Assembly: GCA_051294375.1 (NCBI GenBank)
Contig: CM119271.1
Coordinates: forward strand, 6,065,991 to 6,129,990
Length of the DNA: 64,000 bases
From: Paraspadella gotoi
Taxonomy: Eukaryota > Animalia > Chaetognatha
Direction of reading: 5' to 3'
Both the position numbers and the translations under genes were made by a program. Below the pieces are notes generated by a model that had not been told where the DNA came from, ran no database searches, and saw only the letters and a program-made list of their open reading frames with translations. Below are positions 72-43,680 of the stretch, in pieces; the stretch's first letter is position 1, and the number at the start of each line of letters is the position of its first letter.

Positions 72-2734
72 TCACCCTTTCAACGCGACCACGCATTCGC
101 AGACTTTCTCCACGGCCTTGGGCGGCTTCGCGAAACTCCGGATCTCCGTGATGTCGGACTTTTCGAGATTGTCCAGCGCCCGCGCCGCCTCCTCCAGCGC
201 CGGAAGCGCCTCCGCCAGTGCCTCCTCCGCGTCCGCCTGACAAGAGACTCGAATGATCGAAAGACGACGACGATCACAACGGAACACTTCCCCTTCGCCC
301 CATCCCTCTCTCTCACCTTCTCGACGTTGATCTCCCTGGAAAAGACGATGATCTCTCTCTCCTTTTGATTCGCGGCCGCCTTCTTCTCCGTGGCTATTTT
401 GGTCCCCGCCACGATCTCGCCCAGCAGCAGTTCGCAAGCCTTCGATTTTTCTGACCGAGACAAACGTCGTTGTCATTCTTATCAATAAATGTTTAGTACT
501 TTTTTTTTTATCACTAAGATTTTTCGAAGATTTTTTACGTATATCGTACATATATATATATCGTTTACAAGATTCTAAATGATTTCAATAAAGATGAGTA
601 ATGCTCTCCAGCATGGTTGAAAACAAAAAGATGTGGCACAGCTTAAAGCTGCTCAGCTGGCTGTCCGTCCCTCAGGCCCTCGTCTCAATGGTGAGCAGGC
701 TAAATCTATTATATCCGATCCTGCGTTGCGTCGGTTAAATCCCTGGGTATTCGCGTTCTGGCTTAAATGTGACGGTGCGGTATGGAAATGCAGTGACAGG
801 AGCGGTGCAGGTAGGGTCCGCAGCCCTACGCCAGTGGTGAGATACGGCCTGGCCCACGCGGTATCACAGGCTATCCTCCCGTTGCCCATAATATAATATA
901 TATATATCGTTTACAAGATTCTAAATGATTTCAATAAAAGATGAGTAATCTCTACCAGATGGTTGGAAAACAAAGAGTGTGGCAGCAAGACTAAAGCTGC
1001 CTCACTGCTGTCCGTCCTCAGCTCGTCTCAATGCGTAGCAGGCCTAAATCATCTCATTCCATCCGTGCGTCCCGGGTTCAATCCCTGGTATCCCGGTTTC
1101 TGGCTTAAATGTGACGGTGCCGGTATAAACATGCCAGTGACAGGAGGCGGTTCACTGAGGGTCCGCAGCCCCTACGCCAGTTGGTGAGATACCCCGCGCC
1201 CCGGTATCACAGGCTATCCTCCGTTGCCATAATATTATATATATATATCGTTTACCAGATTCTAAATGATTTCAATAATAAGACGAGTAATCTCTACCAG
1301 ATGGTTGGAAAACAAAAGAGTGTGGCAGCAAGACTTAAAGCTGCCTACTGCTGTCCGTCCTCAGCCTCGTCTCAATGGCTGAGCAGGCTAAATCATCTCA
1401 TTCCATCCGTGCGTCCGGGTTCAATCCCCGGGTATCCCGTGTTCTGGCTTAAATGTGACGGTGCCGGTAATAAACATGCCAGTGACAGGAGGCGGTCACT
1501 GAGGGTCCGCAGCCCCTACGCCAGTTTGTAGATACCGCGCCCCGGGTATCACAGGCTATCCTCCCGTTCCATAAATATGATATATATATATATCGTTACA
1601 AATTCTAATGATTTTCAATAAAAGACGAGTAATCTCTACCAGATTGGTTGGAAGACAAAAGAGTGTGCAGCAAGACTTAAAGCTGTCCTCACTGCGTCCG
1701 TCCCAGCCTTCGTGCTCAATGGGTTGCTGGCTTCAGCAGCGCTCATATCATCTCATTCCGATTTCCGTGCGCGTCTCCGGGTTCATCCCGCGGGCTATCC
1801 CGGGTTCTCGGCTTAAATGTGACGGTTGCCGGGTCTACAAACATGCCAGTGACAGGAGGCGGTCACTGACGGTCCCGCAGCCCCTACGCCGAGTTGGTTG
1901 TATATTATCTTTCCCTGCCTTCTGGGTATCTACAGGCTAGTCCTCTTGTTGTTGCCATAAATTATATTATATATATCGTTTACATAGATTTCTAAATTGA
2001 TTTCAAGTAAAAACGACGAAGTAATCTCTACCAGATGGTTGGGAAAAACAAAAAGAGCATTCTTATGAGTAGTAGTTTCGATAAAATTATGCCTTTTGTT
2101 TAAACTTTCCCACCGGCGACGGCTTTCTTCTGAATGACCAGTAATTTGTTCAACTCTTCAAGCTGTATGCTCGCTTCGGCCAGTTTCTCCATGCCACCCA
2201 TGAGCCGTTGGCACTAGAACAAACAACATTTTTGTTTGTGCTCATTCTTTTATTCTCTTTTCTGCGACGCATTCTCATTGGAACCTGTCCCAAGATGTAT
2301 TTGTCTTTATCCTCCAGCAATCTGGTGTAGGTATTGATGTAGTCGAGGTAGTTTTTGGGCGTGACGTAGTTGAAGCGTCTGAGCTTTTGAGCAAACGTGG
2401 CCGAGTAATCTCCCACGGAGTTGTGGGTGTTGACGATGTGATCGATGACTGCCTCTCGGTGCTCAGTGGGGATCAGTTTGTTCTGAATGGCCAACAGTTT
2501 TTGATTAAGTATGACAACCTGGAGGGAGCTCTTTTGATAAAATAAGGAAGGATTGATGCACGAATGGTGTAACAAATACAAATAAACTACCTCGGGAGAG
2601 ATAAACCTTGACGCTACAGCTAACAAAGCTTGTTGAGGCCAAGCAGAGAACCAATCAATAATGCAGTTGTTAACCAAACCTACGGATTAAAAGTAATTTT
2701 TTTTTTTTCGTTTAATTTCTGCCATAAAATTCTA

Positions 2735-2822
<88 letters not shown>

Positions 2823-5800
2823 GAAAGGCTCTGCATCTGTTTCTCAGCGTATCTCCAACCGGGGACATGGCGACGACTACATGAAGATTATTGAAGCACT
2901 TGTCGACGAAGTATGTCCAAATTGATTCTTTGGTGTGGTAACCAGCCTTGGCGGCTTCGTTACGTAACTGTCACGAAGGCGTGACAGTTGAAAAAAGTTT
3001 TAAAAAAGTTGAAGACAGATCGAATCGCCAATCGAATAACGTTCGATCGAATATTGATGTCTGTTAGTTGAATACTCGATAGGAATTTATATTGTTACAG
3101 TGTTAATTTTAATAATTTCATCAATGAATTTATCAAACAATCAATGACCAATTGACCATGTTCCCCACCTGTCCAATGATTCCCTCTTTCTCGTCGTCGG
3201 CGAAAAGAGCGGGCACCATGCCGGAAGTGAGCATGTTGTTGACGAGCTCCAGAAATCCTTCCTCCATCACGTGTTGATCCCCAAAGTAAAAGACCATCTT
3301 CTTGCTTTCCATGCCCAGAGAGTTGTAGAGGATCTGAAGAGAAGAGTGTGTGTGTAGAAAAAAGGGTTTTGTGAAAAAGTTTGGCTGGAACACTCGTTTT
3401 AGTTTTGGCAAGATCGAACTGAATAAGACCCTTTTCGGTCGACCTGTCGATCACTCCGTCCATAAGTATTTAAGTAATAGAATAAAGGGAAGAAGAATAT
3501 GAAAAAAATTAAACGACACTTATCCTTCATACACTTCGTATGCACATACACACAAATTACACATATATACATACACAATACACATATACTTCATCGCAGG
3601 AAAAAAAAAACCAATAACAAAAAAAATTATTCGAATTTATTATGAGAGCCGCGACTGATTTGGAATACTGGAAAGGGAACTTTTTATTAAACTTATTTTC
3701 AAAGGAAACAAAGTTTGTTTTGTTTACAAACAATGAGTCTTATTTACGAACGGACACGTTTTCAACTCTTTTTTCAAGTGTTCTGAAGCGAAGAAGAATA
3801 TAAGCTTGCAGAAACCTGCTATGTTATTATCTTGTAAGTGTGATGGAGGCCTTGAACCACCAAAGCCTGTCTAAAGTCAGGGACAAGATAGCTTATTTAT
3901 TAAACGAATGGATAATTTTTATATCGGTTGTACCAATTTCATAAAGATGTCCGTTTGTAAATAAAACTCATTCGTAAACAAAAGCGAAACGGTTTTCTCT
4001 CTAAATCTTACGCGCAAAAGTACTCTATACCACAATAAATTATCATCCTTTTTTTCATTTCCGGTCCAACGAAATTATTCCTCGCCTTGAGATCGTCGCG
4101 AAAGTTGGCTTCTCCGTATCCTCGACTCAGCACGATCTCGAAGATCTCGCATCCGGCCGCGAAGCTGGCGAGCTTGGTCAGGGATCCCTTGCCGGAGCCT
4201 CCGACGCCGACGAGGAGCGCGTTGCCGTGCTCGAGTCGGAGAATGCGGTGGATGCGCGTCAGGTGCTCGAGAGCGTCGTCGAAAAGGACCAGGTGCATCG
4301 GCTGATTGCGCTCGTTGTACTCGTCCGCCACCTGGGGGTAAGGGAGATTAGGGTTAAATAGGGTTACTAACCCCATATGTCACTGTGGTACATTCGGCTG
4401 TTAACCGAAACGTTGGTGGTTCAAGTCCACCCTGGCACGTTATTTTTCATACGCTAGTAACATTAGGAAATATAATTAATAACATTGTTAATGAAGGACA
4501 ACAATCATTTGTTCTCCTTTTTGTCCGCTACCTCGAGTTATAGCCAGATCTCTCTCTCTCTCTTTTTTTAATTAAAACACCAGGAAAATCATCTTTAGTT
4601 TTACGCCCAGTTTTCCCTCTTCTTCTTCTCGCCCGCCACAGTTCACTCACCTCCTCGAATATCATCTTTACTGTAGCATGGTCTCCCAGGTCCTCGTAGT
4701 ATCGAGGTTCGTTCTCGTCCAAGGCGTTGCGATAATCACCGTACAGCATCGGATCCACCAGCACGAACTCTATGAGATCCTCCTTGAAGTAGGCTAGGAG
4801 CTGCTCCTTGATGATGCCCTGAAGGGATCGCACCGAATACTGCGTCGCTCTTCTTTACCGATTGAGGGTTTTTTTTGTTTTTTTTATCCACGGATCCCGT
4901 CAGATCCGGATAAAAACCAAAGACGACGACAATGACGACGATCGCAACGACGACGACGACCACAACGACAATAATCTCTCACGTCGACGAGCTCTTTGTC
5001 GGTGTCGTTGATGAGCCGATCGCAGAAAACGCGGAGGGACTCGTTGCGCCAGACGCGGACGAACGCTTCCGGTGTCTAAAAGGTGATGGAGGAGGAAAAG
5101 GAGGTGGAGGAGGAATAGGAAGATGAAGAGGAGAAAAAAGACCGAAGATATTTTTCTTCTTTCTTTCGTACTTTCTTCTTTTCTCTTTCCTTTTTCCTCT
5201 ATTTATCTTTTTCTTTCTCCCTCTTAGTCTTACTCTCTCTATATATTCCTCCTTCTTTCTTTCTTTCTTTGATTCTTTCTTTATTTCTTTCTTTCTTTCT
5301 CTTTCTTCTCCCTCTCTTTCTCTCTGTCTCTGTATCTGTCTCTCTGTCTCTGTCTTTCTGTCTCCTTTCCTCTCTCTTTTCTACCGACCTCTATCATCTT
5401 TGGCACCGTGCTGCACATCCCGTGGATGATTCTCGACAGATCGCGAAGGTTGAAAATATAATGAAACTTGGATGGCGTCGGAGGCAAATCGTTGGAAATG
5501 CGTCTGTCCGGTTTTTCACATGTAAAATAATTAATTGAATAGTTATAAAACTTATCAATGAGATGTAATAATAGTACAAGTGATATATCTGATAACCACA
5601 CATGCTCGTAATAATCCATTCTATTTTTCCAGCAATGCTTCCATTGTTTTTGATAATTATCTTAGGAAGAGAAAGATATGAAAGAAAGAGTGACACAAAA
5701 GCTTTTCAACGTCTTTATTATTATCTAAATAACACGCTACTTATTAGCTATTTGGAACCGCCCCCCATTACTTGTAGAGCTCCATGGTCATCTTGACGAG

Positions 5801-8800: not shown

Positions 8801-9572
8801 CTGTCTGTATATTCCTTGACCAATAACGCGTCCAACATGAAACAGAACTGCATCATCTGCGCGGAGGAAAGTGATTTCGGCTTTTATCGCGCATCATTTA
8901 AAATTTAAATCAATCCGTCGATCCTTACCATATTGAGATTTGTGAGCGGGGCGATGGTCTTCAACTTGCTACTTTGTTTTCCATCCAAAACTCCCTCGTG
9001 TATGTAGAGCATCATCTCGGGAATGTATTTATCGTACATTTCGCCGAGAGCTAAAGTCGAAGTTAAAGATTATAAAATGAAGGCGCTGATTGGATTTACC
9101 CGAAGGTAAGGTTTGGGACTGACCGACTTGCTCTTCGCGGTTCTGTCGTCCGTTTAACCAACGCTTCCAGTAGGGTTCATAACCTTTATTAAGGAAAAGA
9201 ATCGCCGTCGATCAATCGAAAAACTCAAGATCGAAACTTCAGATTCTCGATCGATAATATTTCTCAGTTTTTGTTCTCTCTTTCTTGAAAGAAAAGCCCA
9301 TTCAACTTCGACAATTTTCATTCATTAACAATGACATCCGGGTCGCCCTAACACCTAAATTCTTTGGATCGACGAAGACCATTCCGCATCGTGAAACTGT
9401 CGCGGGCGAGGCATATTGCATGTCGAACACCTGAACGAATCGTGAATAATTCGTGTTTGAGATTTCTTTCTATTACATCGTTCGATTCGTGAATTTCTTT
9501 TTAATTCCCCCCAAATTCTTTTCTTTTATCATTTATGTATATATCTATTCACACAGTACTGTAGATGTCTCT

Positions 9573-9623
<51 letters not shown>

Positions 9624-10234
9624 GAGCCCACCCAGGGACGATTTTTATGTCTCAAACATCAAAACAACACCCAGGGACGATTTTTATCAAAACAAGATAG
9701 CAATCACAATGTAAATGAAAGTCGACATTCTCTCTCGTTACCACGCACCTCAAACAAAAGGGCTGCGTGCGACATCAGCCTGATTCTTTCCCCATTCGCC
9801 AGAGTTAAAAGTTTGTTGTCGTCCATGACTGAATTCATGTTTTCCACCCAGAGGGCGTCCACGTCGCCGTCGAACAGAATGTAGCGTCTCTCCTTTTTGT
9901 CTATTATTTTTTTAAACAATAACATTTTGTTTTATCAAAGAAATAAGAATATATCGATGCGGGCTTTTTTAGATTTAGACATTTCTACGGTATTCAGCGG
10001 AAATGCTTTAACAAAAGCTCACCCGTCGGCTTGTTGATGTCCCTGAAAATGTTGGAGAGGAGACCGTCGATCCAATCCCTTGTCGTTGGATCCAAGATTC
10101 CGTAGAGTTCGATCACGGAGGTGGCTTTCGGATTTATCGTGTACAGCTTGGTGATCAAACCAAGCTTGGTCTTGATTCCGTGGAAGCATAATGGATAATT
10201 GGGAGAATAGAGAAATATAAGCTCAGATGTCTCT

Positions 10235-10285
<51 letters not shown>

Positions 10286-11407
10286 GAGCCCACCCAGGGA
10301 CGTAATTTTTTTTTATGATGGACAAGATGACAAATATGAAATTTACGACAGTAATCTGTTAAGGGGAAATATCAGGCGTAAAATTGATCTTTTGTTTCTT
10401 TTCTCACCTGCGCCTGACAGAGAGTGTGAATGACTACCGACTTCCCGCCTCCCGTCGGGCCGACCACCATAGTGGTGTGTCGGGTCATCATCGTTTCGTA
10501 GCTGAGAGGAAACGGAAAGGACAAATTTTACAGGGATAGAGGTTGTTACCACGAAAGGTAATGCTGCAGAGATTGAGAAAAAAGACCCCCCAAAAAAAGA
10601 TAAAAAATAAGAGAAAGAAAATATTTTTTTTTTGGATGGGTACTTTGACATCGCCAAGGTCATCACAAGATCCTTTGGGCTGAACGACATCGGTTACTCA
10701 CAGTTGAATGACTTTGTCGATCTGATTCGACATCAGCATCATCCTCTGCTCGAGGAGGCAACTTTCGACGGCGTCGTTGAAGCTCGGGTATCGAACGCGT
10801 GGACAATCGAGGCCAGGAAAGAGATCCTACGGGTGGGGAAGAAAGTAAGGTAAGGTAAGGTAAGGTAGGATAAAACTCAAACGGATAAAAACTCTTGTTT
10901 TTGTAGAAAAAATATTCTTAAAAATCTTTTAAGCTTAATATCGATTCAACTACTTTTACTTGGGATGAAATTGAACTGAAATTGAAGGATCTAATTTCTG
11001 CGTCCTTTTTTTTTTATATTTTATTTACACATTTTAATTGTAAAATTATTATGTTTTGTTTAGTTACCAACCACCCAACTTGCCCATTGCCCAATGCCCA
11101 TTGCGCAGTCCCAAATTCCTCACCGTGATCAGCCCCAAAAAGAGCGGGACGTCCTCGAAGACAAACTTGGGTAAGTTCATGTCCCTGAGAGCGCGCATAA
11201 GGACGGTGTCCTCGGTAAGGTCGGGCGATCCTCGCTTCAAGTTGCCCGCCATCACCAGGACGGACTTGAGGGCGCGGAGACCGAAGTCGTAGTGGTGCTG
11301 CTTGGAAAGCTGCTCCCGGGAAAGCTTGTAGAGAACGGTCATTTTCTTTGCAAGTATCTGAAATATAGGGTTTTTAAGTACCAGTGAATAAATCGTTCGA
11401 CAGTGAA

Positions 11408-11461
<54 letters not shown>

Positions 11462-14400: not shown

Positions 14401-17400
14401 ATTCTCCTCAAGTTGTCTATTTATTGCTTCTGGCCAAACTTAAGCGAATTCGATTGTTATTGTTATTCATTACTGACATCTACTTACAACTATTTTCCAA
14501 TACTTTTTCTCTCAGGCTTTTTCGACAATCGTCAGCAATTCCCTGCTCAAACCTTTCTAAAAGTCTTATCGATGTTGTCGAACTTCTTGGCCTCCTCCGG
14601 CAACTGAGATCGGATGTCGCCGCCGACGAAGATGCTCTCCAAGTACATCCACTTCCGCTGCACAACGATCCAGATGTCGATGACCTCGCTGATCAGAGAG
14701 AGAGCTTTCTCCCAGGACTGCACCGTTGCGAGGAAGGGGCCGATGAAGCTGGTAAAAAAGGGAAGTCGGGAGGTGGATGAAGATGCATCGAATACCAGAT
14801 TCATCATTTGTTTTCAAGAAGCATCGTCTGAAAACTTACTTGCTCTTTATTAGTTGCGCCGCGAGTACCCGCGGAGCAACTCTATAAGTCACTTTTCGGT
14901 CGGTCTGTCGGTCGGTCGGTCAGTATGTCTCTCCGTCGGTCTGTCCCACTTAGATTAATTCGATGCTCATCTGTTAAAACCGGAATAGAACCGCAAAGCT
15001 CAGCGACTGCTAGAGCTATCTTTCGTTTTTAAAGAAAACTATAAAGAATAAAAAACGTGATTCCAACACAGCGCATGTCGAAAATATTCGGAAATACACG
15101 GGATAAGAAAGTTACTGCGGCGCAACACACATTAAAATTACTATTCTTATTTCTTATATATAATATATATAATATTACAAAATTTAATAATTCAATTGGT
15201 GCGTTAACGAGTGTCCTATTTTATGTAATTGCATCTCAAAGTGATCTTGCGGCGAAGCAAAAATTAATATGCACAAAGCGCGTCTCTTCATATATCACCC
15301 ATATGCAAAGTTTAGTATTTGGAAACAGACAGACAGACCGGCGCAACTAGAAACAGACCAGGGAATTAACGCTGATATAAAATCTCCTCACCGCGAGGCC
15401 GACATGCTCTGCAGGTTCATGGCGTTGTCCTCGATCGCTGTGCCGATCTCGTCCACGGGACCGAGAATAAACCCGCGATCCGAAACTCCTTTGATATATC
15501 GAATCACGGTGAACTTCATGTTCTCCCAGATTTCTTGAACTTCCCTCACGCCCTACGATGGGGGAAGGAAAGTAAGAGCTTGATGGCAGGATAACTTCCC
15601 GTTGGCCAACTGCCATTGTATTAAATTGCATTAAATTACATTCATTGATAGGGAAGCAAGGTACTCTGGGAGTAAATAAACGAGACTGTGAGAGAGTCTT
15701 GATTGAAAGCTTGCAGGAACCTGCTCTTTCATTATCTTGTAAGAGTGATGAAGGCCTTAAACCACCAACGCCTGTCCAAAGTCAGGGGCAAGATGGCTTA
15801 TTTATAAAATGAATGGATAATTTTCATATTGATTGTACCAATTTCATAAAACGAGTTTCGACCCAAACTTGTGCCACGTACCTTTTCGATGCTTAACTCC
15901 TTGACGGCGGAAGTCACGATTTCCCCGATCGTATCCTGGTAATTGTGAAGACCCATGGCGAACAAGTTGGCCAGGGTGAACGTCTCCGGGTTCATGTCAA
16001 ACTCTTTGCCAGTCTTGACCATCAGCTCTTTCCAATGCCTAATTTCATGGATTGTTTTAATGACGGCCGCTTGATATCGACAAAAAATGGGTAATCCAAA
16101 ATTTTGAATAAGTTTGATTGATTGATTGATTATTTAATTAATGAATGGATCGATTGAAGTTTTATTTTTTTGGGTTTATAATTGGTTGGATAACGGTTTA
16201 AATAATTAAATAAACTCATATTTAATTACCTGTCCCTCAACGCCTCGTTCTTCAAATCCATGAAGAGCGGGATGGAGTCTTTGAACTCCTTCATCTTCGC
16301 CTCCAAGACTTTGGCCACCTCCATCCCTTTAACGTCGCGCGGAAGACGGCGGAACTGCTTCAGCAGCGACTCGATCCCGTCGAGCAGATGCTGCACGTCC
16401 AGGTTGGCCCAAAGGGTCTCCGCCCACTCCGCCCGGGCTCGCTTTCGCGCGAGAGGGGAAAGGAAGGGAGATAAGAAACGATGGATGTCAAGAGACGAAA
16501 TAATACGTGTATTTGCACAAAAATCACGCTCTCCGCTCGAATTACGTTCTGCTCTTCGTAGAGTCCGTAGATCATCTCCAGGCCTCTCATCTCCTTCTGA
16601 ATGAACTGCATCTCCGGATACATTGTGATCGGGATGTCGAACAGTTTCTCCGCGTTGGCCAATTCCAGCCGGGTGTTCTCAAACTTGCCCATCTCCATCT
16701 TGAAGGGCTTCATGCGTTCCAGGCCTGGAAAAGGATGGAAAGAGAGTGAGGTATAAAGGAAGAAAAAAAGAAAGAGATGAAGATATAAACAAATAAAAAA
16801 AATTAAAGATAAAAAAAAAGAAAAGTTCTGTAATAACAAGAAAACAAAAAAAAGGAGAAAAAATGAAAAAAAGGAAATTAAAAAAAAATTAAGGCAGAAA
16901 CAAACAAAAAAAGAGAAAAAAAAAAACAATATGAAAATAAAGAGAAAGAGAAAGAAAGAAAAAAAAACAGAATGAGAAAATAAAGAAAACACACGAAAAA
17001 AAAAGAGAGAAAAAAAATTGAAGAAGGAAGGGCGTTCTTCCCTGACCCAAATCTAAGTCGGTCCCAATGTTTCCGGGTCCGTCTTTCAAGAACCGCAAAT
17101 AGAACTGGTGCAGATCGCCCGTGTAGTCGACGATGTGAACCATGGTGATCTCGGTGAACTTCTTCTTCACAACCACCAAAGATGCCTCCACCACCTTCGA
17201 CTCCAGGAAGAGCGCCTCCCAAGTATCCTTCATGGAGCGCTGAAGATCGAGCTCTTCTTGGGTCACCTAAGATGGAAAGATTTGTTATTAATTTATTTAT
17301 TTATTTTTATGTTTGTTTTCTTTTTTTTTCTTTTTTAGTCGGATCTGCTTATCAGCAGATCCCGACTCTATAACTCACTTTTTCGGTCCGTCGGTCCGCC

Positions 17401-19220
17401 CCCTCAATATTGTCGGGCACACACTTATATCATGTCAGAACATCGAATTATGATAAAATTATGCAAAAAAAATGATGTCGTCCGTCCGTCTGTCTGTCGT
17501 CCCGTCCGTCCGTCGTCCGTCCGTCCCGTCCGTCCCACCTTAGCAAAAAAACTCCAATTACCCGTGATTGGATGGATGGATTGGTATGAAAATTTTTGTG
17601 TGTGGGTAGGAAACTGGTGTGATTGAGATGGATATGAGTATTTCGAGGGAATCGTTGCGAGTGGAACTTGGGTTAAATGAAAAAACAAAAAAATATACTT
17701 CACTATTTGAACGCCAAAATTGCTCATGAGTGGAATAGTGCAATTGACTTGAAATTTTGTATGATGGTAGGAAAGTGTTGTGATTGAGCCGGAATATAAA
17801 GTTTCGAATGGATCGTGCGAGTGGAAAATGAGTAAAAATGGAAAAAACAAAAGTCATATTTACTTGAAGTATTTTTTACTTAATTTACTCATAATATTTT
17901 GTTTATTAAAAATTGGATAGATAAATCGAAATTGATTTTGTGTGTGGTAGGAAAGTATGTTGATAAAGCTGGATAAAAATTTTTTGAAATGGAATCGTAG
18001 GAGTGGAAAAAGAGTTCAAATTAGAAAACCAAAAGACACATTTATTTTGAATTTTTAAGTTTCTCTCTCTCTCTCTCTGATGATTGATGATTGATTGATT
18101 GATTGAATGACCAAATTAATGGTAATTGACCAAATTATGCCAGTTGACCAAACTCTGCAAGTTAATCAAGTTTTTGCAAAGTTGACCAAATTATGCCTGT
18201 TGACCAAATTAGGCTAGTTGATAAAATTAGCAGTTAACCAAATTATGCCGGTTGACCAAATTATCTTAATTGATCAAATATGTCAGTTGACCAATTATGT
18301 CAGTTGACCAAATTATGTCAGTAGACCAAATTATGTCAGTTAACAAATTATGCAAGTTGATTAAATTATGCAGTGACCAGATAGCTTATTACATTAATTA
18401 TCGACTTGACCTGGAATTTTGTATGTGAGTAGAAAAGTGTGTGATTGAACAGGAAACCAAGTTTCGATGGATCTTTGAGTGGAAATGAAGTTTAAATGGA
18501 AAAAACAAAAAAAACCTGTTTCACTAATTGATTATGCTTCTTTTTCCCTTTTATATTAAATGTTATATGCAGGATGTATTAATAAGTCAAATATTAATCA
18601 GTTAATTAATCAATTAGTCAATTAATTAATCATAATTAATAATCAGTCAATCAATCCGTCCATCCGTCCCACCTTAGCAAAAAGCTCCAATACTCTGAAT
18701 TGGCTGGTTGGATTGAAATGAAATTTTGTGTGTGGGTAGGAAAGTGTGTGATAAAGCTGGATATTAATTTTCGACGGAATCGTGTGAGTGGAAATGAGTT
18801 TAAGTGGAAAAAACATAAGTCGCATTTACTAAAATCTTTTACTTATTTTAACCAATAAGTACTCTAATTAATCATAATTGGATGGATAGATTGAGTTCAA
18901 ATTTTTTGTGTGGGTAGAAAAATGTGTATCGATGCTTGATTAAAGTTTCGGGGAAACGTAACGAGTGGAAATGAGTTAAATGAAAAAAATATGAAAGTCA
19001 CATTTACTTGAATCTTTTACTTATTTTAAACCCATAATAGATTGAGATGAAATTTTGTGAGCGGGTAGGAAAGTGTGTGAAAAAAGCTAGATATAAAGTT
19101 TTTGAGTGGAATTGTGCCAGTGGAAATGAGTTTAAATGAAAAAAAAAAAGTCACATTTACTTGAAGCAGAAAAAATGATACAAGTTAAAAAAATCCTAAA
19201 GCATAAGGATCGTCGCAATT

Positions 19221-19279
<59 letters not shown>

Positions 19280-19917
19280 AGTAAATGAGCATAAGGATCG
19301 TCGCAATTTCAAAGAGAGAGAGAGAGGAGAGAGAGAGAGAAGAGAGAAGAGAGAGAGAGAGAGAAGAGAGAGAAGAAAGAAGAAAAAGAGAGAGAGTCCG
19401 AGATGAAAAAATAGCGAATAAAAAAGTTGTTATTTTACTCACTGAATAAAAATACTTAAAAATACTACAAAATACATAAAATTGATAAATTATTATTCCG
19501 ATAACATTGTTTATATCACATGCATATATCTAGTAAGGCTTAATATCTAGTAAGGCGGGCCAAAATTGAACACTTTTATAACTTCTAGTTCTCTTTAAAT
19601 TTTTTTCCTTTTATACTAAATCGATTTTCATATAACTTTTTGAATTAGTTCATTGGGTTGTTGCACTGAAGCTTTTATAATATTTATTAATATATAATAA
19701 TATATAAAGTATTACGGAATTGTGCCAGGGGAAATGAGTTTAGATGGAAAAAACATAGTCACATTACTTGAATCTTTAAATATTAATGATTACTAATAAA
19801 TGTTTTAAATTAATTAATGAATTAATTAATTAAATTAATGTGAAAAAATGATGCAAGTTTAAATTCTGGAAAGCATAAAGATCGTCGCAATTGCAGAAAA
19901 AAGAGAGGAGAGAGAGA

Positions 19918-19975
<58 letters not shown>

Positions 19976-22060: not shown

Positions 22061-22093
<33 letters not shown>

Positions 22094-30712: not shown

Positions 30713-31251
30713 TTTGGATTTTTCGGGGTTTTTTTTTTTTTGGTTTGTGGTTGTTGTTTAACGGTAAAAGTAATAAGTATAAAGAATGGAGCTTGAAGTT
30801 GCAGTGACGAGACTGCTCGCGTCAAGGTTAATATTTTTCGATACGCGTTTTGTGTTGAGTATGTAGAAGAATTTCACGTTTTTTTTATGAAATTATTTCT
30901 TAAAAACAGTTTGGGAATTAAAATCTAAAAAATGAACTTAGTTTGGGAAGACGGCATCGTTTTAATTAGAATAGATGATATACTTCTCATCGCTCTTTTT
31001 ACCCGAAGATAAAAGAAAACATTGAACATCAAGACGATACTCAAGGAACTATTTATTATTTTATAATTATATATTGAGAGAGAAAACAAAGTTTGTTTTT
31101 GTTTACAAACAACGAAGTTTATTTCTTGTTTGTAAACAAAAACAAACTTTGTTTTCAATCTCAATTTAAAAACGCAACGAAACGAAAGTCCTTTCACTAT
31201 ATTTTATAAATTAAACTTTACGGCGCCCGCCGCTCCCGTAACCGTTCATCA

Positions 31252-31401
31252 GCGGCCATTGGTGCCGAAGGCAAGTCATTCGCCTCCCAACCCAAAGGTC
31301 CGGAGTTCTAGCCCGGTGGTCGCCTAGCAGTTAAGAGGGACGGGGCGCTTAACCCTCCTGTAACATTGTGTTACAGCCTGATCCAAAGCTCAGAGACTGC
31401 T
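31252..31401 (+). mobile_element. tRNA-derived SINE-like element (family 3): tRNA-like head 31252-31324 plus twister-like motif 31326-31401
   Basis: Acceptor stem GCGGCCA/TGGTCGC over 73 nt with a tRNA-Gly-like ttcgcctccca and a degenerate T arm. Then P5 AGCAGT/ACTGCT, GA-CGG, GGCGCT, TAA, P3 TGTAAC/GTTACA, P4 CTGA/TCAG with loop TCCAAAGC. Confidence 0.72.
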
Positions 31402-31496
31402 TATATTGAACGGTTCTGTCACTAACACATAACATTAATTACAGTCTCTTCAGTTGTAAGATTTTGCTTGTTTCAACTCGGAAAATAACATTGAAA

Positions 31497-34400
31497 ATGG
31501 CAAGTAAATTTAATTGAAATCATTTAAGCAAATGGGAAGCATAAATCTTTTGTCCGATTTGTCCAATTAATTTCCTTTTTCTCCGCTAAGATCGCTTCGG
31601 CGACGAAGACGACGACGACGATGGATGGGGAACTGAAAGAAAAGCCAAGGGAAGAGCGATAGAGAGCGAGACAGAGCCAAACTGAGCCAGAGAGATTCTG
31701 GCAAACCAGAGTCACGCTGCCGAAGTTGAAAGCCTCATTCATGACGAGCCTCGAATTAATCGTATCAAAAGTCTCGTGACGCCGACGTGGGCGTCTCTGT
31801 TTAATGAGACCCTAACTTTACGTAGCGCCCGCACGAAACTTGACTCCTATTGCGTTGTTTTGGTTTCAAGCTGACGCCCAGATGTCTTTCGACCTGAATC
31901 AAATGGCTTGATTATTAGGCTTTTATTGCATCATCTCATCGTTTATTCACTTCTTTTTTTCCCCAGAAATCAATTTAGCTCCTGACCCAAAAATGTCAAT
32001 TTATTCCAATTATTCGAATCGAAAGAGAACTGCTTGATTTTTATCGCAACCAGCGAGGGGAAGGCCTGGGATCGAAAAGCGGGACAGAGCATCTGTCAGA
32101 GGTAATTCGTACATTGAACCCGCCGTAAAAAAAAAAGCTACGATATTATGTACTTATTCGAAACGTATAAATTCGAAACGTTTAAATTAAATTCAAAGAT
32201 AAACCGACCCATTTCTTGTTTGTAAATGTTATTACTCCGCGGCAATGATTTAAAAACATCGGAAATAAACAGAAAAAAAAATTAATAAAATATTAAACAA
32301 ATTATTCTGGTACGTATTGCTCTTTTTGACTTAGTAATTCCATTTAGTATACTGTATCATCGCTACGTTTTTTCTTTGTAGAATTCGAGATGGATTCTTC
32401 TTACCCAGAGCCGGACTCAACAAAAAATGGAAAAGCCAAACGAAAAAGTAAATTTTGTGAACACTGAACAGTACTTTTAAATTAATGATTACAAATTAAT
32501 CATTTTGTTAATACCATTTAAGGAAATACTATATAGTGTAGTAGTAAATTTAAATTTGATTTCAAAATAGCGTATTTTTCCATTCTTGCACAATACCTTA
32601 ATATTGTTTTTTTAATTTCAACTTCAAGCTACGTAAAAGAATGGTTACACTGTATTTATACCCCATTTAAATAATAATTAAATCATTTAAGTGATCATTT
32701 TTTCGATTTTAATTTTTTTCGTATCTTTAGGTGATAAGAAAGAAAAAAGGTCCCAACGATCTACCGGCAGCCTTAAAAGGTCACTGAAATGGCTAATGGA
32801 CCGAGGAAAGAAAAAAGAGCGGTAGGTCGTTCCTTTCTTTAAAATTTTACTTAGACTATTACCAAAACCCTGGTCGGCGAAAGAGAAATTTTACCATTAT
32901 CTGTCCTATTTAGTTCGGAGAGTGAAGATGACGCCGAGGAAACTTCGTTCACCACCGCCCTCGAGACCAGCGGCGCCGATCTCTTCGGAAATTCGTCGAG
33001 CTACGAAAGGTTTAATCTAATCCAATAAAGTCAGAGAAATAAACTTATATATATAAATTGTATTATTTTCTCTCTTTTCGTTGCTAAGTGAATATTGATA
33101 AAGGTTTAATGTTTTGCCAATACAACGATTTTTATTGTTAATAGTACATGTTTCAACTCTCTTAGTTCGACAAAGGTGGGACTCTGGCGATGTGATCGGG
33201 TCATTGGCTTGTCATAGACCGAGATGATATTCTTGTAGAGTGGGATATCTTAGGGTCAGATAGAGACCCGGCTGGGAAAATAACAAGTGCCACTCTAATA
33301 TCTATTTGGCCTGATAAGCCTGCCGAAGGCCCTCCTCTCACCTGACGGTGAGCTGGGCGGTTGCCTGTTTTGGTGCAGGATATACAGACTCCTCTCCTTC
33401 CTGTAGCCGTCGTTTTTGGCGTCGCCCGGTGCTCGGAGAGGCACGCCAAGTTGCTACAGGTTCAGGAGAGGCATCGGACGTCCATTGCCTGCCTGGAGGC
33501 CTCCACCTGACCCGTTGAGTTGGGACAGGAATCACCGTGCGGTTGATAGCTTGGAGGGAGATCGAATCGTCCTCCATGGTTCAAAGAGGGCTCGAGGGCT
33601 TTGATGTAGACTGCCTCTCTAATACCTCTTGAGAACCAATTTTGGTCATGGGACAGCATGAGGCAGTCGGACTCTCTAAACAAATGGCCAGAAGATGCCG
33701 AATGCTCGGCAATAGCCGATAAGAAGTGACCAAGTGTGTCACAATACAGCTTTTTGAACCGATCTGAGAGACTTCCCGGTCTTGTTCCACGTATGCTGCT
33801 GTGCAAGGTTGGTTGCCCGCCCCGGCACAGGCCGCCCAATAGACGGCTCCTGAAGTATGCGGTCTGGGGATTTTGTCTTTCGGTTTCACTAATTGCTCAC
33901 GTAAAGAGCCGCGTGTCGTCACTGAAGTGGAGATCCCCTTCTTTGCTAGTACCCGCACCAAAGCTTCAGTGATCCCCTGGTGGTAGGGGAGGGACAAATG
34001 ACCTACCGTCTTGAGGCGCTTCTGCTTATCTCCCAGTTGCGCTGTGGTGGGCGCGGTTGGTCCTTCAGCAGCAAGGCCTTGTTCTTCCTCCTGGGGGGTG
34101 GAGCTTGAACTTGCGTCAACAGTTACTTGGACAGCACCTTGGTGGCCACTGTCCTCAGCCTGGTTCAGCCGGAATCTGGCCTTCTCGAAAGCCCACCGGT
34201 AACCATTGAGCGCCAAGGCTCTTTTGACATGCTCAAGCTCGGCGGCCTGAAGCTCGGGGGTCGACGGAATCAGTAGGGCTCTTCTGGTAAGGGACCTGAC
34301 TGTGGGGAGTTTGTGCGACAAGGGAGCATGTGAATCAAATGGAATGTATTGGTCAGTATGAGTTGGTTTGCAATATCTGGCCACTGTCCTTTACTCAGCC

Positions 34401-37400
34401 CTTTGTTGGAAACTCTCCCTCAATCTTTCTCTCTCTCTCTCTTTAACTCAATGTGTAGAGCAATTTTGCTAATGTTTTTTCAAAGCTAATGAAGACTCGA
34501 ACTAAGAGAGTGGAAACATGTACTATTAACAATAAAAATCGTTGTATTGGCAAAACATTAAACCTTTATCAAATATAAATTTTAAATAATTCAGAAACGG
34601 GGAATACGAGGAAGATTCTAGCGTTTTCGAAGGAGGCTCGCTGTCCCGACCGGATATGAAAAGGTACATGTACCTACATTGGTACATGCGTTATTTTTAC
34701 TTCTATGAGTCATTTTCATCATCGCAATCGCTTGCGCTTGCGACGAATATGGGACGATGTTCCCAATCAACGTCGTCGTCGTCGGCATTCCAAATTATAG
34801 ATCACCTTATTATAAAAGTGTGCAATTGTATAAAGCTGAAGATTTAGATATAGGCTTTCATCGTCAAGAATTTTTGAAATTGAGAAGCATATATTCCAAA
34901 TGTTTGATTTAATTTGGATTCACTTTACATTATGATTAACTGATTAACTGTAATATGCAAATTAGTATATAGTTTAGGAATTTTTTTTTTCCTCAGTTGC
35001 TGCGTTTTCTTATTCGTTGAGCTTTGCAGCGGTTGAGCTGAAAGTTTCGTGTCTCTCCCTCTCTCTCTTTCTTTGTTTTTATTTTAAAAAATGTCAGTAT
35101 GATGAGCGGGGTTTTCCGTCAGTTGCTCACCCTTCTGAGAGTATCTATATCGTAGGATTTAATGAGTCTTTAGAGATAAAGAACTGGAGGTAAGCAAAAG
35201 GCAAGCATCGGTTAAAGATAGTAACAACAATGACCTCTTTTTTTTCTTTTGTTTCTCTTAGTTTCACTTATTTTTCTTTCTATTTACTTATAGAATTTTG
35301 TGTCTGTTTGTCCATCTGTCATTTGATATTCCTTTTGTTCTTATACATATATTTATATATTTATTTATTTATAAAACTTAGATTTCCTGTATCAAATTTG
35401 ATTTTTTTGAGTATTAAAGTTTGTCATGGGTCCAGATTTTTTTTTAAATTTATTTTATCAATTTTGTTTTTCCTTTTTTTTAAGACAACGTCCTTCGACT
35501 CGCTCATCCTCCTCCTCGTCGAGCTCCTCTTCGGATTCGGAGGTGGAAGCGGGGCCCTTTTGCGGAGCCTCGAGGCCCAAGAGAAGCGGAGAGAAGAAAA
35601 GAAAAAAAGAGAAGAAAAGAAAGGAAGAAGCCGCAGCACGGAATGGACGGCGAGAGAATTCAAAGAAGAGAAAAGCAGAGATGGAGTTTTCTTCCGACGA
35701 AGAAGAAGATTACGGAAAGGTCTGTCTAACAAAAACCTTTTTTCCCCCTTCATCTCTGCCAATGATTAACATTCGGTGGCCTTCAGGTCGTTCTTCAATT
35801 TCCGTCGGGAGAGGGCTCGTCTTCCAATGGAGCAATCTCTCCTCGCTCGTCCACCTGTCGTGAGGCGTTGGAGGAGAACCTGGTCGACGAAGACAACGAC
35901 GAAAGGCTCGAGGTTCGGTTAACTTTCTCCTTTCAGCGTTTCGTTTCTTCCTTGGATCAATTCACTTTTTTCTCGGTCAGGATCCTGATGCTACTGACGC
36001 CACGGTCACTGTTGTCAAGCGCAGCAAAAAGAACGGCGGGACTTGGCCGCGCCAGAATGCCAATCCGACTGCGTGCTCAAGCGTGGCTTCGACGCACCCC
36101 AGAAGAGGGTGAGTTTTGAGTGTAGTATCTTTGCTTTGCTTTGCCCTTTGCTTAGAAAAAAAAAAGGATTCGTAACGTTTCTTGAGCCTGAGCTGAGGTA
36201 AAGTTAATAATGAACGGAGTAAAAAGACAGAATAATTGTTATTACGGGTCCAGCCCCAGGGCCCTGTATCTCTTGTCAGGGGTTGAATATCAAAATTCAC
36301 CTCGATAGTTCCATTTATATCGTCATCGAATTTCGATCGGGTTGTTTGTTGGGAACAGTTTCTGGTAACAAAAAACCACCACCTCATTTTATAACATGGA
36401 GCTTTCTTTAGATATTAAATTTTACATATTACATTTTACATATTACATTTTAATTTCTCTATGCAGTCGAAACTCGGAATCGAATCCTCCCGCCGCAAAA
36501 TCGCCGGTGAGGAACGAGGCTCCCTCCGGAAGCAGCGGGGACGTCGAAGTCCGTGTCGTTCATTCCTCTCGAGGGATGTCCGTTTCTGTCCTTCTGCCGT
36601 CTTCAACACCGGTACGTCGTGATCATTTTCTTTGCGCGATTTGTCGAGTTTCTTGAAACTTTAGCTCATAGTTCCGAGTGAACGGTAAGGCGTAGTAAAA
36701 TTTCTAAATTTAACTTTTATTAAAATTCTAAAAGTGAGAAACGAACAACATTATACTAATGAACATTTATGTATAAAAAAAATTTATAATAAATTTTACA
36801 ATTTACGCAGTAGGCCATATTTATACTAGTACTAATCCAATAAATGTTAAAATTTCAAAACAGTTTTTTCTAAGGTTTTTTTGCAGATTTGGATTCGTCA
36901 TAAAAAGTTGATAAAAAGAAATATAACTCTTTTTAAAAAATTCCTTCATTAAGTGGGTCAAAAATTAGAAAAAGCTATATTTTAAGCTGAAAATTAACTT
37001 TTTATATATTAAATATAGTTTTTGTAATTTTTAACCCACTTAATGAAAGAATTTTTAAAAATAATTTATATTTTCTTTTATCAACTTTTATCAAATCTGC
37101 AATCAAAATTAAGAAAAGCCTATTTTAAAATTTTTCGATTAAATATAGCCTACTGCGAAAATTAAAAAACATAAAATTAATTTTTTTTACAAATTAATGT
37201 TCACTGATGGTATGTTGTTCATAATTGACCTTTAGAATTTTCGTACGTAACTTTCACTACGCCTTAGTGAACGGGTTTAGAACGAGACGGATTTAACTGA
37301 ACAAATTGTTTACACACTTTTTTCTATTTAATTTTTGCCTTCAGAGTGGTCGATCAAGCAGCGCGCGCGATATTCGCAGCAACGCGCCTCTGCCGCCATC

Positions 37401-40400
37401 GCAAACGACAACCCTGCAAAGAAGGTGACTGAAGGCTGAAGCTAAACATTTAACAATTCTTAATCTATCTTTCTTTCATATCGTTTTTTTTTTTTTTTTC
37501 AGACGCCGACAGTCGGGAAATCGTCGAAACTCGTTGCCCGCGGCAACTCATCACGGCGTCCTCGGCGCTAACAACGCCGTCGCCTCGGCCTCTTTTCCAG
37601 ATGTGACCGAAGAGTCGACGCCGACAACGACGTCACCTCGGAAAGTTCCGTCGAGACGCGCCTCCGTCATACAGATCGATGACGAGGACGATGGCGTGGA
37701 AGAGAGCGGCGAGGAGTCGGACGAACCCTTGGTGGAGTTTGAGAGGATGTGCCCTGAACGAATTGTCGATTCGGGTGAGGCTTGTGCTGTTTGGTGCTGT
37801 TTTAAAAAAAGTGGTGTCGTAATCGACGTTCTCTATATCCATTATCCACCATTTTTAATAAGAAACTCGAATTCGAAAATTATTTTTAATGCTATTTACA
37901 GTACAACGACGTAAGTACAGTAAGGCGCAGTGAGCATAAGCCCATATTTATACATAGAAAATGTCAAAATTTTATAATAGTTTTTTTTTAATTTTGAAAG
38001 CAGATTCGAATTCCTCATAAAAAGTTGATAAAAGAATTAGAATATATGTCTTAATCAAAAATGATTTCATTAAGTTAGCCAAAAATTTTAAAAAATATAT
38101 ATTTTTTAGACTAAAATTTAATTATAAGTTAATTATAATAGTTAAATGAAATGAGTTATATTTCCTTAAATCAATTTTTCGTAAGGAATTCGAATCTGCT
38201 TTTAAAAATAGGAAAAAAACATTTTAAAATGTTGACATTTTCTATGGTGAGTACTATGTATAAATATGGGCTAATGCGTAAATTGAAAAATAAAAAATAC
38301 ATATTTTTTTTAATTAACAGGTACAAGCCTGTTCATGATCCACTATTCTAATATGGATTCTACTTGATTTTAATATTTTTGTTACGCTTTAATGTACATT
38401 GTACAGTTGTTCAATGTACATGAATAATAACCTAGTTGTAAACGGCATTTAAAATAATTTTATTATTTTAATTTCAAAAGCAAGAATGAAAACGATTAGA
38501 TATGCTAGGACCGGCGGGTCCTAACAGATATTAAAAATAGTGAACCGACTTTATTAACTCCCCAGACGACGTTGAAGAGCTAACTGAAGAAAGCTTAAAC
38601 GCAACTACTGTATTGGGAGATACGCCTGCTTCACCTGATGCCGTAACGGGTAAGTAAAAAAAAGCTAATGGTACAAGTTTGAAGACCTGAATATAGAGAT
38701 TCCTTAACCGTTAAAACGGTTAAAATTGTAATTAACTTTACTTTTTCTTTGTTTTAAAACTTTAAAAACCATTATCTTTCAATTAACAAATTATAAAAAA
38801 TTGGTACAACCAATATAAAATTAACCATCCATCCATTTATTTTAATTAATAAAAATACTTATCCTGATCAATCATTCATGTAAGAATTCTTAAAAATCTT
38901 ATAAAAATTATATTATTATATGCTGAATTATTTTAAATAAAAAATTAATTTCCATTAATTTCTATTAAATAATATTAATTTCCATTAATTTCTATTAAAT
39001 AATATTAATTAAAATTCATGATAATCATTAATTACAATAAAGGAAACTCTCGAACAGGAAGAATTAAAAATTAAGAATTAAAAAGCCAAAAAAAACCTAC
39101 AGTTATCAACCAAATCGACGACGACGCCCGGTTGGCTCGGCAACTGCAGGAAGAGTTTGACCGCGAGATGGCTACGACAATGGCCCAGGAGATGGAACGA
39201 CAAACCGTTGACCGCGACTTTTCCGTCGATAGAGATCTCGCGGGCGCTGGATCCTTCCGCTACACCGGTAGAGATGCCGAAGCGGTTCCGGGGGCTCCCG
39301 GCCCGTATTACGACTTGTCGACGAGAAGGTATGGAAATATAATAATTTCGTGAGTATTTTCTTTCTCAATTTTTTTTTTATAATTAAAAAGGCGAAACCT
39401 CTCCCGAGCATTGCTCAACTCTTCGACCCACGCGGGCGACGTTTCTCGGGCGCCCCACGCCCTTCGTCGCGCCGGTGCAATCATGCCGGTCGATTTCCTG
39501 TCACTGGCGCCGTTCGAGAACGAAGACGAGGACGAACAACTGGATGCGCTGTTCGACGAAGACAGCAACGACACGAATCGAATGGGCTTTGATGGTAAAG
39601 CTCCCTTCTCTTGTTTACATTCGTAAAAAACGAATATCTTGCCTGCTATTCCTGTGTGCATTAACTACATAATATTTTCGATAAAAATTTTCAGCCGCCA
39701 TTCCCTCTACTTCCACGGCGTTTACTCATCGTTCGCCGCCACCGTTCGAAGACTCTCGGAATCGTCGACATTCTCGCGCTCTGTCGAGAGGGCCCGAGGG
39801 AAGAGCGAGCTCCTCCCGGAGAGGAGCGCAACCATTAGGTAATGCCGGGTATTAGACCCTTTGACGGATCTGTTTTTAAACCAAGACTGTATTCGTATTA
39901 GGATTGAGCTCTCGGGGACAACGTTCCTCCTCGTTCGCGGAGGAGGAAGATGAAAGCAGGGAGGACGAACCTATGGATGTCGACTCAACGGGGCCTTTAC
40001 ATGAAAATCTCAATCTTGGTAAGTTGTCTTCTTTCTCTTATCGTTTTCTTTTTCACATTACTTTTCTTTCATTTTTTTAAATTGGGTTCATTTTTCGATT
40101 AAACGTTCCGCAGACTCGTCAAGCCAGTCAACCTCCCAGGTTGCCGCCGGCGCGCCCCGCCGAAGCAGGCGCCTTCTCCGCGGCCTTTCCGGTTCTAGTC
40201 TCCTCATCCCCGCAGGAGGCGGCGTCAGTGCGCGGGGGGCCGAGAACGTCCGGTCGTCGTCCTCACCTCTATCTTCCTCGCTTAACGATATCGTGATTCC
40301 ACTTAACCGCGTCAACCCGACAAAGTAAGTCTTCACATGATAATAGCTAATTTTTGACCTCTCGCGCTACGCTCAGTCCCAGACGGTCTTGTGAGAAATA

Positions 40401-42692: not shown

Positions 42693-43085
42693 ATGTTTCG
42701 TGTTGCGGTTGTCAAAAAACGTTTAACTTCTCGTAATGAAGGACTTGGTCAAGCAGCAATAAAGGCATTTCACAATCAAGGACTCAATGCTGCCTATCAC
42801 AAATTGGACCTTGATTCGGAACAGCATCTCCCGCTTTGCATATTTCCTTTTAAAAAGCATGATGGCTTTTACGTTCTTATCTTTTTGATAAAGCAAAAAA
42901 TCATGCTGATAAAGGTTGGCCCAAATTTGCTTATGGAGGTTCCAAGATGGGAAATGATGTAATTTTTAGTTCTTGTCCCGGCCATTTCGATACTAATATG
43001 AGCCCCAGACCTGCTGATGTTGCTATTTTTTTGGCTACACTGCCTCCCAAGTGGAACGAGGACGGTTTTGGGCTGAGAGAAAACT
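42693..43085 (+). pseudogene. Decayed tandem duplicate of the carbonyl reductase gene
   Basis: Colinear blocks match 44087-44920 (LTSRNEGLGQAA..GLNAAYHKLDLDSEQ; GNDVIFSSCPG..DT.MS.PRPADVAIFLATLPPK), with large deletions and frameshifts. Confidence 0.88.
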
Positions 43086-43453
43086 TTATCAGTGGAAACG
43101 CTAATTGCCATAACCAATGTAAAGATTCCCGTAATTCTATTTCTCATCAAAATATTCTTTATTACCCAATTCCTGACATAGTCATTTCTGACCCTTTACA
43201 TATTCTTATTACCTAATTATGCAACTTGTTTTACCATTTTAAATTTTATTAATGATTTGAATAATTTCAATCTAAATTTTGTGATTTAATTTTCATTCCA
43301 ACTTTAAAAGACTTTAAAAGAGACTGGCGTTTTACCCGATTACTATCTGCGATATTGATACTCTCAGAAAGAGAGAGAGACGGAAAACCCCGCTCATCAC
43401 CTATTTTTATTTTGTAGTCGGGCATTGCATATGTTCACCCCGCCTTCAATCGT

Positions 43454-43680
43454 GATCCTGTGGCTCATTGAGTAAAGCCAGAAGCTCATGACCACTAGGT
43501 ACCGGGTTCAATCCCGTCCTCACGGTTCAATCCCAACCCGATACCTGACCTGTGGGGAGCTTGAGGACGGCCGTAAACTGCTTTGGGGGCGTGGAAAACC
43601 CTCAGGCCTGGTTCCAAGCCCAGGACCTGTTCCATCGCTTTAAGAGGGGTTAAAGAAGTTCCGGATTGCACTCTTCAGCC
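43454..43680 (+). mobile_element. tRNA(Met-like)-derived SINE-like element (family 4) with type-P5 twister motif (~43552-43635)
   Basis: A box TGGCTCATTGAG (43461), CTCATGA loop, B box GGTTCAATCCC (43505, duplicated at 43524). Then GA-GGA, CGGCCG, TAA, ACT-GC, P3 TTTGGGGG/CCCTCAGG, P4 CCTGG/CCAGG with loop TTCCAAGC. Confidence 0.78.

Follow-up and report, generated by a model that had tools for sequence, protein, structure and literature searches.

How can a short repeat keep a self-cleaving ribozyme just behind its own promoter-like head? This question is raised by a stretch of 64,000 nucleotides from the chaetognath Paraspadella gotoi (GenBank assembly GCA_051294375.1, contig CM119271.1, positions 6,065,991 to 6,129,990, forward strand; hereafter the window), in which six loci belonging to four families present a fold resembling the type-P5 twister ribozyme. 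The favoured answer, to which a probability of about 0.55 was given, is that these are short non-coding elements carrying a twister-P5 fold with a palindrome in place of P1, which likely cleave as dimers and likely move as non-autonomous riders on Naiad-type Penelope-like elements (PLEs). By analogy, they would best be read as partly tRNA-headed twister counterparts of retrozymes and of the Sm-alpha short interspersed elements (SINEs). Evidence on copies was taken from contigs of four sequencing runs (X2, X3, X5 and X9), compared with positions 1180-4500, and concerns families 1 and 2; the first stretch was present in nine runs from three studies. Run X9 was guessed to be RNA: four spliced joints of a dynein gene were found in it, together with families 1 and 2.

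The order P5-P2'-GA-T1'-palindrome-TAA-P2-T2-(P3)-P4/L4-P5', which an earlier sequence-only reading had proposed, was borne out at all six loci, on the + strand, with the consensus of Rfam twister-P5 (RF02684, clan CL00120) as reference layout. The catalytic GA lies at 1113, 1457, 3842, 15747, 31339 and 43563, and the cut is predicted after the U at 1126, 1471, 3853, 15758, 31350 and 43574. The GA and the core letters of L4 are present at every locus and UAA at five, the sixth being restored by 98-100% of contig depth. P4 is Watson-Crick throughout at all six, in four different sequences; T2 is paired at five and T1 wholly paired at four (one with a G-U), and both pseudoknots are formed by different pairs in family 1, in family 4 and in the majority letters of family 2. 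To this extent the claim of different but paired helices stood; it failed for the copy of family 3, which has a mismatch each in T1, T2 and P2. P5 is clear at five loci and weak in family 4 (the register used for that family in the pairing script did not pair), a P3 hairpin is present in three families, and P2 is a full 4-bp helix in family 1 only (two of the six loci), with one or two mismatches in families 2-4. That four families of different sequence have kept the core letters and both pseudoknots argues for selection on the RNA.

The six loci were ranked 1-6 across both strands (in the order 1113, 1457, 15747, 3842, 31339, 43563) by a twister-P5 score that ignores the palindrome; six sites scored at least 36 versus 0.267 per shuffled window and three scored at least 40 versus none (60 shuffles). 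A strict grammar gave two matches, both in family 1, versus 0.05 per shuffle (40 shuffles), and missed families 3 and 4; with up to two defects allowed, six matches (four real, two AT-rich) were obtained versus 1.95 per shuffle. When the palindrome was included, in a grammar written after the loci were known, five matches were obtained versus 0.325 (200 shuffles). On short stretches, the Rfam model aligned copy b of family 2 (15744-15786) with 22.5 bits (E 0.0078) and family 4 with 15.4 bits (E 0.62, covering P4/L4 only). The MAFFT alignment of the cores was not structural. Since neither an intramolecular P1 hairpin nor a score at the Rfam gathering level (37.6) was found, the motif was filed as twister-like, with type-P5 order.

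That the resemblance arose by chance, or the repeats by faulty assembly, would fit the indel-rich array of family 1, whose copy number is unmatched by contig depth, and the tuning of scores on loci already known. The shuffle tests and the Rfam alignment of family 2 contradict it, as do the runs from three studies, which carry families 1 and 2 with better-paired majority letters. For these two families chance is already largely refuted, and this explanation as a whole was considered very improbable.

A self-complementary stretch of 6-8 bases lies between T1' and UAA in all four families (four sequences; three cores, GGCC, GCGC and CCGG). The linker is self-complementary at five of the six loci, and at the sixth in the family majority, versus 21 of 847 (2.5%) shuffled matches. 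The homoduplex has a calculated energy of -8.3 to -10.9 kcal/mol, while the most favourable closed hairpin would cost +4.1 to +5.6 kcal/mol. Drawn as a 3-bp stem, the palindrome leaves no loop: in the in-register alignment of family 2, the P1 loop has 0 bases versus 14 in the Rfam model. Because a short palindrome replaces the P1 helix, the model predicts that cleavage occurs only on pairing of two copies, and the elements would likely cleave only as domain-swapped dimers. The palindrome had been part of the proposed order, without this consequence being drawn. The same two-copy arrangement is described for the palindromic stem III of PLE hammerheads (PMC6765202) and for amphibian retrozymes (PMC7229834, PMC7761336).

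The elements might also be mini-twisters active as monomers, with a P1 of 1-2 bp and a four-base loop, incidental palindromes, and cleavage slow enough for uncut RNA to be retrotransposed. Such a P1 can form within one molecule and requires no partner. P1 is reported to be dispensable for slow cleavage and is only partly paired in env22 (PMC8501958, PMC6154101), so that some activity of monomers may occur. A loop needs no self-complementarity, yet self-complementary linkers are found in four families, with three cores, against the shuffled rate given above, and this alternative was judged rather improbable.

In family 2, copy a (3802..3945, +) is 5'-truncated and has its core at 3828-3890, its palindrome at 3847-3852 and a damaged cut triplet; copy b (15678..15850, +) has its core at 15733-15795, its palindrome at 15752-15757 and its predicted cut after 15758, and is devoid of a tRNA head; a tail-only fragment (38798..38832, -) is 89-91% identical over 32-36 bases. 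Three pieces in 64 kb point to thousands per genome. Summed contig depth, which is inflated by overlapping short contigs and is no copy number, was 4.0e6 for family 2 and ~2.8-3.0e5 for family 1 in X2, versus ~130-400 in single-copy bins; X3 and X5 showed this pattern too. Family 2 has a sharp 3' end at 3943-3945, where contig counts are a safer measure than depth: among the contigs listed, 374 (X2), 396 (X3), 175 (X5) and 82 (X9) leave it at 3942-3945 into unrelated AT-rich flanks. The family is 5'-truncated: depth in X2 falls from 5.2e6 at 3905 to 2.7e6 at 3854 and 2.1e6 at 3839, the ratio of depth at 3905 to depth at 3854 is 1.0-1.9, and 46 contigs of X3 begin at 3884. The majority letters repair the fold, as A at 3854 (98.4-99.8% of depth in four of four runs) restores UAA, and C at 3872 (90-99% of depth) gives the T1 pair TGG:CCA, in agreement with the consensus read earlier from the sequence.

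Upstream of the predicted cut of family 2, DNA depth is 0.64-0.99 of the downstream depth, so most ribozyme-bearing copies span the cut. In X9 the ratio is 0.41-0.60, which was not counted as cleavage, as contigs show neither ends nor levels. These copies bear on the idea that the repeats are merely SINEs of tRNA origin, the body being a ribozyme relic, no longer active, that stems from the 5' end of an RTE-type long interspersed element (LINE). RTE 5' parts do supply SINE bodies (PMC5786205), twisters occur at RTE 5' ends (PMC8501958), and P2 is weak in three families. However, RTE twisters have the P1 order and lie wholly behind the cut, where the copies begin (PMC8501958); here half of the ribozyme precedes the cut, copies span it, and the four families maintain core letters and pseudoknots although their sequences differ. 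A relic was given little probability.

A perfect 7-bp direct repeat at 15678 and 15849 brackets copy b as a candidate target duplication; a search at the other three loci gave nothing convincing. At 3908-3944, a 37-base duplication of the family 2 tail has single-copy depth in X2 and X3; its length is close to that given for the tails of PLE insertions (30-40 bp). Copy a is also bracketed by AT-rich inverted-repeat sequence (3703-3756 and 3948-3983) resembling miniature inverted-repeat transposable elements (MITEs), with a related palindrome at 31067-31171, just upstream of family 3. A tail common to families 1 and 2, hinted at by a joint from 1568 to 3891 (20-22 letters on the short side), was unsupported by tail alignments.

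Family 1 forms an array (545..2055, +) of four ~255-bp elements alternating with five ~90-bp spacer copies, antisense within an intron of the dynein heavy-chain gene; the period is 343-344, indels are frequent and the spacer begins in (TA)n. The spacer at 1279 was found in one contig per run, with depths of 341/192/24 versus single-copy depths of ~230-280/76-107/13-21. The array is local, because spacer depth is ~1.2-2.5 times single copy and not five times, and is possibly specific to the individual or partly assembly noise. Elsewhere the family sits in long contigs of single-copy depth, and is therefore dispersed as well as arrayed. The intact core at 1100..1180 (+) has P5 of 5 bp, P2 of 4 bp, T1 CGG:CCG, T2 GC:GC, a P3 hairpin, P4 of 4 bp and an 8-base palindrome (1118-1125) before the cut predicted after 1126. 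The core at 1444..1524 (+), with its predicted cut after 1471, has an extra base at 1469 that is absent from 58-99% of contig depth and without which the 8-base palindrome is regained. Among the substitutions listed (40 of 49), none touches the core.

Upstream of the second core lies a tRNA-like head (1359..1431, +), comprising a D-arm-like hairpin with an A box at ~1366-1382 and a canonical 5-bp T-arm with a B box at 1415-1431. A hairpin leader (1320..1358, +) precedes the predicted start of RNA polymerase III (Pol III), which was placed by the position of the A box. This leader is common to genomic copies: depth in the bin 1291-1401 equals that of the core, and in X2 (20 contigs) and X9 (5) the loose ends before 1347 agree with the leader sequence. 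Copies of family 1 consequently include ~40 shared bases upstream of the predicted start, which an internal promoter presumably could not have copied from a lone element. Three possible signs of the mode of spread were rejected: joints resuming at 1471/1472, as evidence of cleavage, are explained by indels of the reference; joints going back 344 positions, as evidence of tandem units, by a repeat inside the compared stretch; and the 90-bp spacer is atypical as a long RTE target duplication, these being 7-15 bp (PMC6007223).

Family 3 has a tRNA-like head (31252..31323, +; a 7-bp acceptor-like stem and a B box at 31305) followed by its damaged core (31326..31401, +; P5 of 6 bp, a P3 hairpin, P4 of 4 bp, palindrome 31344-31349). 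The head of family 4 (43455..43535, +) has a duplicated B box (43505, 43524); its core (43552..43635, +) combines T1 GGA:TCC, T2 GC:GC, a 5-bp P4 and an intact palindrome (43568-43573) with poor P2 and P5, and is followed by a run of eight T (43684..43691, +), a candidate Pol III terminator. In families 1, 3 and 4 the B box precedes P5 by 21-47 bases; the loose B-box pattern has 20 sites in the 128 kb of strands of the window. The head of family 3 aligns to the 3' half of the tRNA-Asn of the window (0 of 500 shuffles as good); the alignment is weak for family 4 (p 0.052) and absent for family 1 (p 0.6). The Rfam tRNA model had no match to the heads of families 1, 3 and 4 (for family 1, at E<=10). 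On the strand opposite to the family 3 head (31212-31270, -), CUGAUGA stands between two 4-bp hairpins, like a type III hammerhead core lacking the G of GAAA; it is possibly due to chance and was missed by the hammerhead scan, in which no core with a stem II of at least 3 bp was found on either strand of the window.

Parts of the initial description were narrowed by these results. B boxes do precede P5 in the three families said to have tRNA-like heads, while family 2 has no head and the Rfam tRNA model recognised none. The term sequence-unrelated holds for the ribozyme cores and not for the heads of families 1 and 4, which share 14 identical bases at the B box. Abundant mobile families, proposed for all loci, were demonstrated for families 1 and 2 alone, by 5' truncation and by a single sharp end beyond which hundreds of 3' flanks are unrelated: the contigs show both to be multicopy with a fixed 3' end, and both are abundant, mostly dispersed repeats.

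Which element might move these repeats was considered from the PLE side. In the supplement of Craig et al. (PMC8557442), two clam Naiad 3' ends, Naiad_Mmer and the preceding record (Naiad_Scon by metadata order), show by eye the order P2'-GA-T1'-palindromic linker-UAA-P2-T2-P3-P4/L4, with T2 CC:GG and one T1 mismatch; they are selected ends and say nothing of the other 52 Naiads. The Naiad_Mmer end has, in addition, a P5, the 9-base P5-P2'-GA junction seen in the copy at 15733 and a P3 stem similar to that of family 1. Naiads are (TA)n-biased, 5'-truncated, partly tandem and devoid of canonical hammerheads, and their abundant 3' ends are often captured by short unknown repeat models (PMC8557442); the word 'twister' does not occur in that paper. 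Family 1 sits at (TA)n, and the flanks of family 2 are AT-rich with tail-only copies, a bias that is not specific to Naiads. The exact motifs of the families were not found in ribozyme context in the parts searched of the Naiad, Chlamys and Hydra consensus files. A Naiad-type PLE is a better candidate partner than a LINE.

The same likeness supports another explanation: family 2, and perhaps others, would be what is left of an autonomous Naiad-type element after 5' truncation, namely its 3' end (pseudo-long-terminal-repeat, pseudo-LTR), and the tRNA-like heads would have been added later or incidentally. The absence of a head in family 2, the 5'-ward fall of its depth, its AT-rich flanks and the capture of Naiad 3' ends by short repeat models agree with this; the upstream consensus of family 2 is known over 30 letters, which do not fix its full length. 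In families 1, 3 and 4, however, B boxes occupy the place where a Naiad 3' untranslated region would be. This explanation was held to be unlikely, with more weight than the relic or the mini-twister.

If the elements are non-autonomous riders with a palindromic P1, the following cycle can be proposed. A tandem source locus would give a transcript holding two copies, there being no T4 stop in family 1 to end it early. The two palindromes would pair into one shared helix, and each copy would contribute its 5' half (P5, P2', catalytic GA, T1') to complete the 3' half of the other (UAA, P2, T2, P4/L4), giving two active sites. Cuts at both sites would free a unit-length RNA, which a host RtcB-type ligase might circularise. 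A Penelope-like reverse transcriptase would then copy the RNA, always starting at one fixed 3' site; the dispersed copies so produced would often be 5'-truncated but would retain the whole ribozyme, and lone copies would stay mostly uncut, so that thousands could be tolerated. The sequence-only reading had argued that an intact ribozyme behind a head requires uncut, tandem or circular templates, and this logic was accepted: as GA precedes the cut in the P5 order, only uncut, multimeric or re-ligated RNA gives a whole ribozyme. A dimer-gated cycle of cutting and circularising is suggested by the copies that span the cut, and by the core kept in four families, since a useless ribozyme would decay.

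Several observations weigh against this account, beginning with the possible short intramolecular P1 described above. All evidence consists of DNA letters and contigs, and cleavage is predicted from the fold. The weights of the palindrome-free score were chosen after the loci were known. The Rfam twister-P5 model had no match in the whole window at E<=1 and, on short stretches, none to family 1, family 3 or the copy at 3828; its best scores, 22.5 and 15.4, are below the gathering score. In families 2 and 3, P2 has two good pairs next to a mismatch or bulge, a defect that the listed majority letters of family 2 do not remove; in family 4 it is poor. Families 3 and 4 each rest on one damaged copy, and the tails of the four families are unrelated to each other. 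Besides having no tRNA-like head, family 2 has a T4-T5 run ~30 bases before its end. Among the joints listed (15 of 67), none joins family 1 or 2 head to tail, and the sole array is local. As to the partner, no Naiad coding sequence (an N-terminal GIY-YIG with reverse transcriptase) was found beside any locus among the frames of the window. A PLE-like fragment at ~33170-34500 has the order thumb then GIY-YIG, that of a canonical C-terminal endonuclease; it was rejected as a candidate partner, as 8 tail comparisons gave no match (best p 0.03) and none of the top 16 twister scores falls in it. This broken fragment (33095-34572, -) lies between 76-bp inverted repeats that are 99% complementary, and its Atlas neighbours carry PF26215 and PF01541.

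The window is intron-rich: the dynein heavy-chain gene, on the - strand, spans roughly its first 30 kb, and several genes come after this, among them those for Integrator subunit 3 and a short-chain dehydrogenase. Of the ribozyme loci, three are intronic, and each of these runs antisense to the dynein gene; harmful effects of sense copies would lead to such a pattern (n=3). Dynein introns contain two identical tRNA-Asn(GTT) genes (9566-9641, 10228-10303) and a decayed copy (4379-4447). A dynein intron also holds a tandem repeat at 17500-19800, whose diverged units measure ~150-180 bp and enclose an 18-bp satellite. A spliced joint in X9 (3333-4086) has the ends CT..GC, corresponding to a GC-AG intron of the dynein gene. 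Several genes form long unbroken frames (48366-51566, 53272-56496 and 44057-44920), in contrast to the dynein gene, which is split by many short introns. The short-chain dehydrogenase gene has a partial upstream duplicate (42722-42951 and 44182-44679), with family 4 between the two, and related long imperfect inverted repeats of ~70% identity, MITE-like, occupy 36722-37241 and 37934-38312.

The type-P5 twister (RF02684) shares with the elements the strand order P2'-GA-T1'-P1-UAA-P2-T2-P4/L4, with L4 reading U-T1-A/C-A-T2', and family 2 aligns in register. Its P1 has 3 bp and ~14 bases, in contrast to the loopless palindrome found here, where P3 is present in three families, scores are sub-gathering and the carriers are animal repeats; P5 stems make up 1% of annotated twisters (PMC6154101). 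No further twister permutations were found in the available part of PMC10085705. The tRNA-derived, Pol III-transcribed Sm-alpha and Sj-alpha of Schistosoma share the design of a head followed by a self-cleaving motif, the high copy number and the need for multimeric transcripts (PMC6765202, PMC2770079), but they carry a hammerhead, whereas a twister-like motif occurs here in several unrelated families, mostly dispersed as far as the contigs show. Metazoan non-LTR retrozymes and the hammerheads of PLE pseudo-LTRs share short non-coding units, a palindromic helix favouring dimer cleavage and a proposed dependence on PLEs, and the monomer share ranges from 0 to 1 (PMC7229834, PMC7761336, PMC6765202, bioRxiv 10.64898/2026.07.22.740005). 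Retrozymes are defined by tandem type I hammerheads and are said to be promoterless, in contrast to the elements here, which have no hammerhead and would form circles only by conjecture. In the available part of the bioRxiv text, 'twister' and 'tRNA' have no occurrence.

Naiads share the (TA)n bias, the 5' truncation, the abundant 3' ends and, in two clam ends, the P5-order fold with palindromes; they are coding elements of 3.4-4.4 kb with a longer linker holding two palindromes (PMC8557442), whereas the elements here are short and non-coding. The T-variant twister of Perere-3, an RTE LINE of S. mansoni, is likewise a twister in an animal retroelement with a relaxed P1, but it has the P1 order, stands at the 5' end and is cut where the target duplication abuts (PMC8501958); here the order is P5, the motif is internal and copies span the cut. 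Metagenomes scanned with the family 2 motif gave one match, in bacterial coding DNA and due to chance. Degenerate short-linker twister patterns gave 11 viral-contig and 13 prokaryote matches, none of the 24 with both a 3-bp P2 and a 4-bp P4; the patterns were narrow, so that absence is weakly supported. A literature search that did not extend to subscription papers, the original twister paper with its supplement and the unpublished RTE twister work cited in PMC7761336 showed neither a SINE or retrozyme that bears a twister nor a twister dimer occurring in nature.

The design is already known from the hammerhead Sm-alpha SINEs and retrozymes, and what is new is its twister version. If the proposed account is true, twister ribozymes would have a second role in animal mobile DNA, and hammerhead and twister would have converged on the same palindrome-gated dimer trick. 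It would also run against the view that a ribozyme following the head of a SINE should be eliminated, because such a ribozyme truncates the element (PMC5786205). Since Rfam does not see the motif, many invertebrate genomes probably contain families of this kind without annotation, and a compact, copy-number-gated ribozyme could serve as an RNA switch. A bolder version can be offered tentatively: a natural two-copy twister with a palindromic P1 switch may drive several independent families of tRNA-headed elements within a single animal genome, in thousands of copies, mobilised by Naiads and not by LINEs. The missing ribozyme of the Naiads would thereby be supplied, as these elements may lack hammerheads because a twister does that job.

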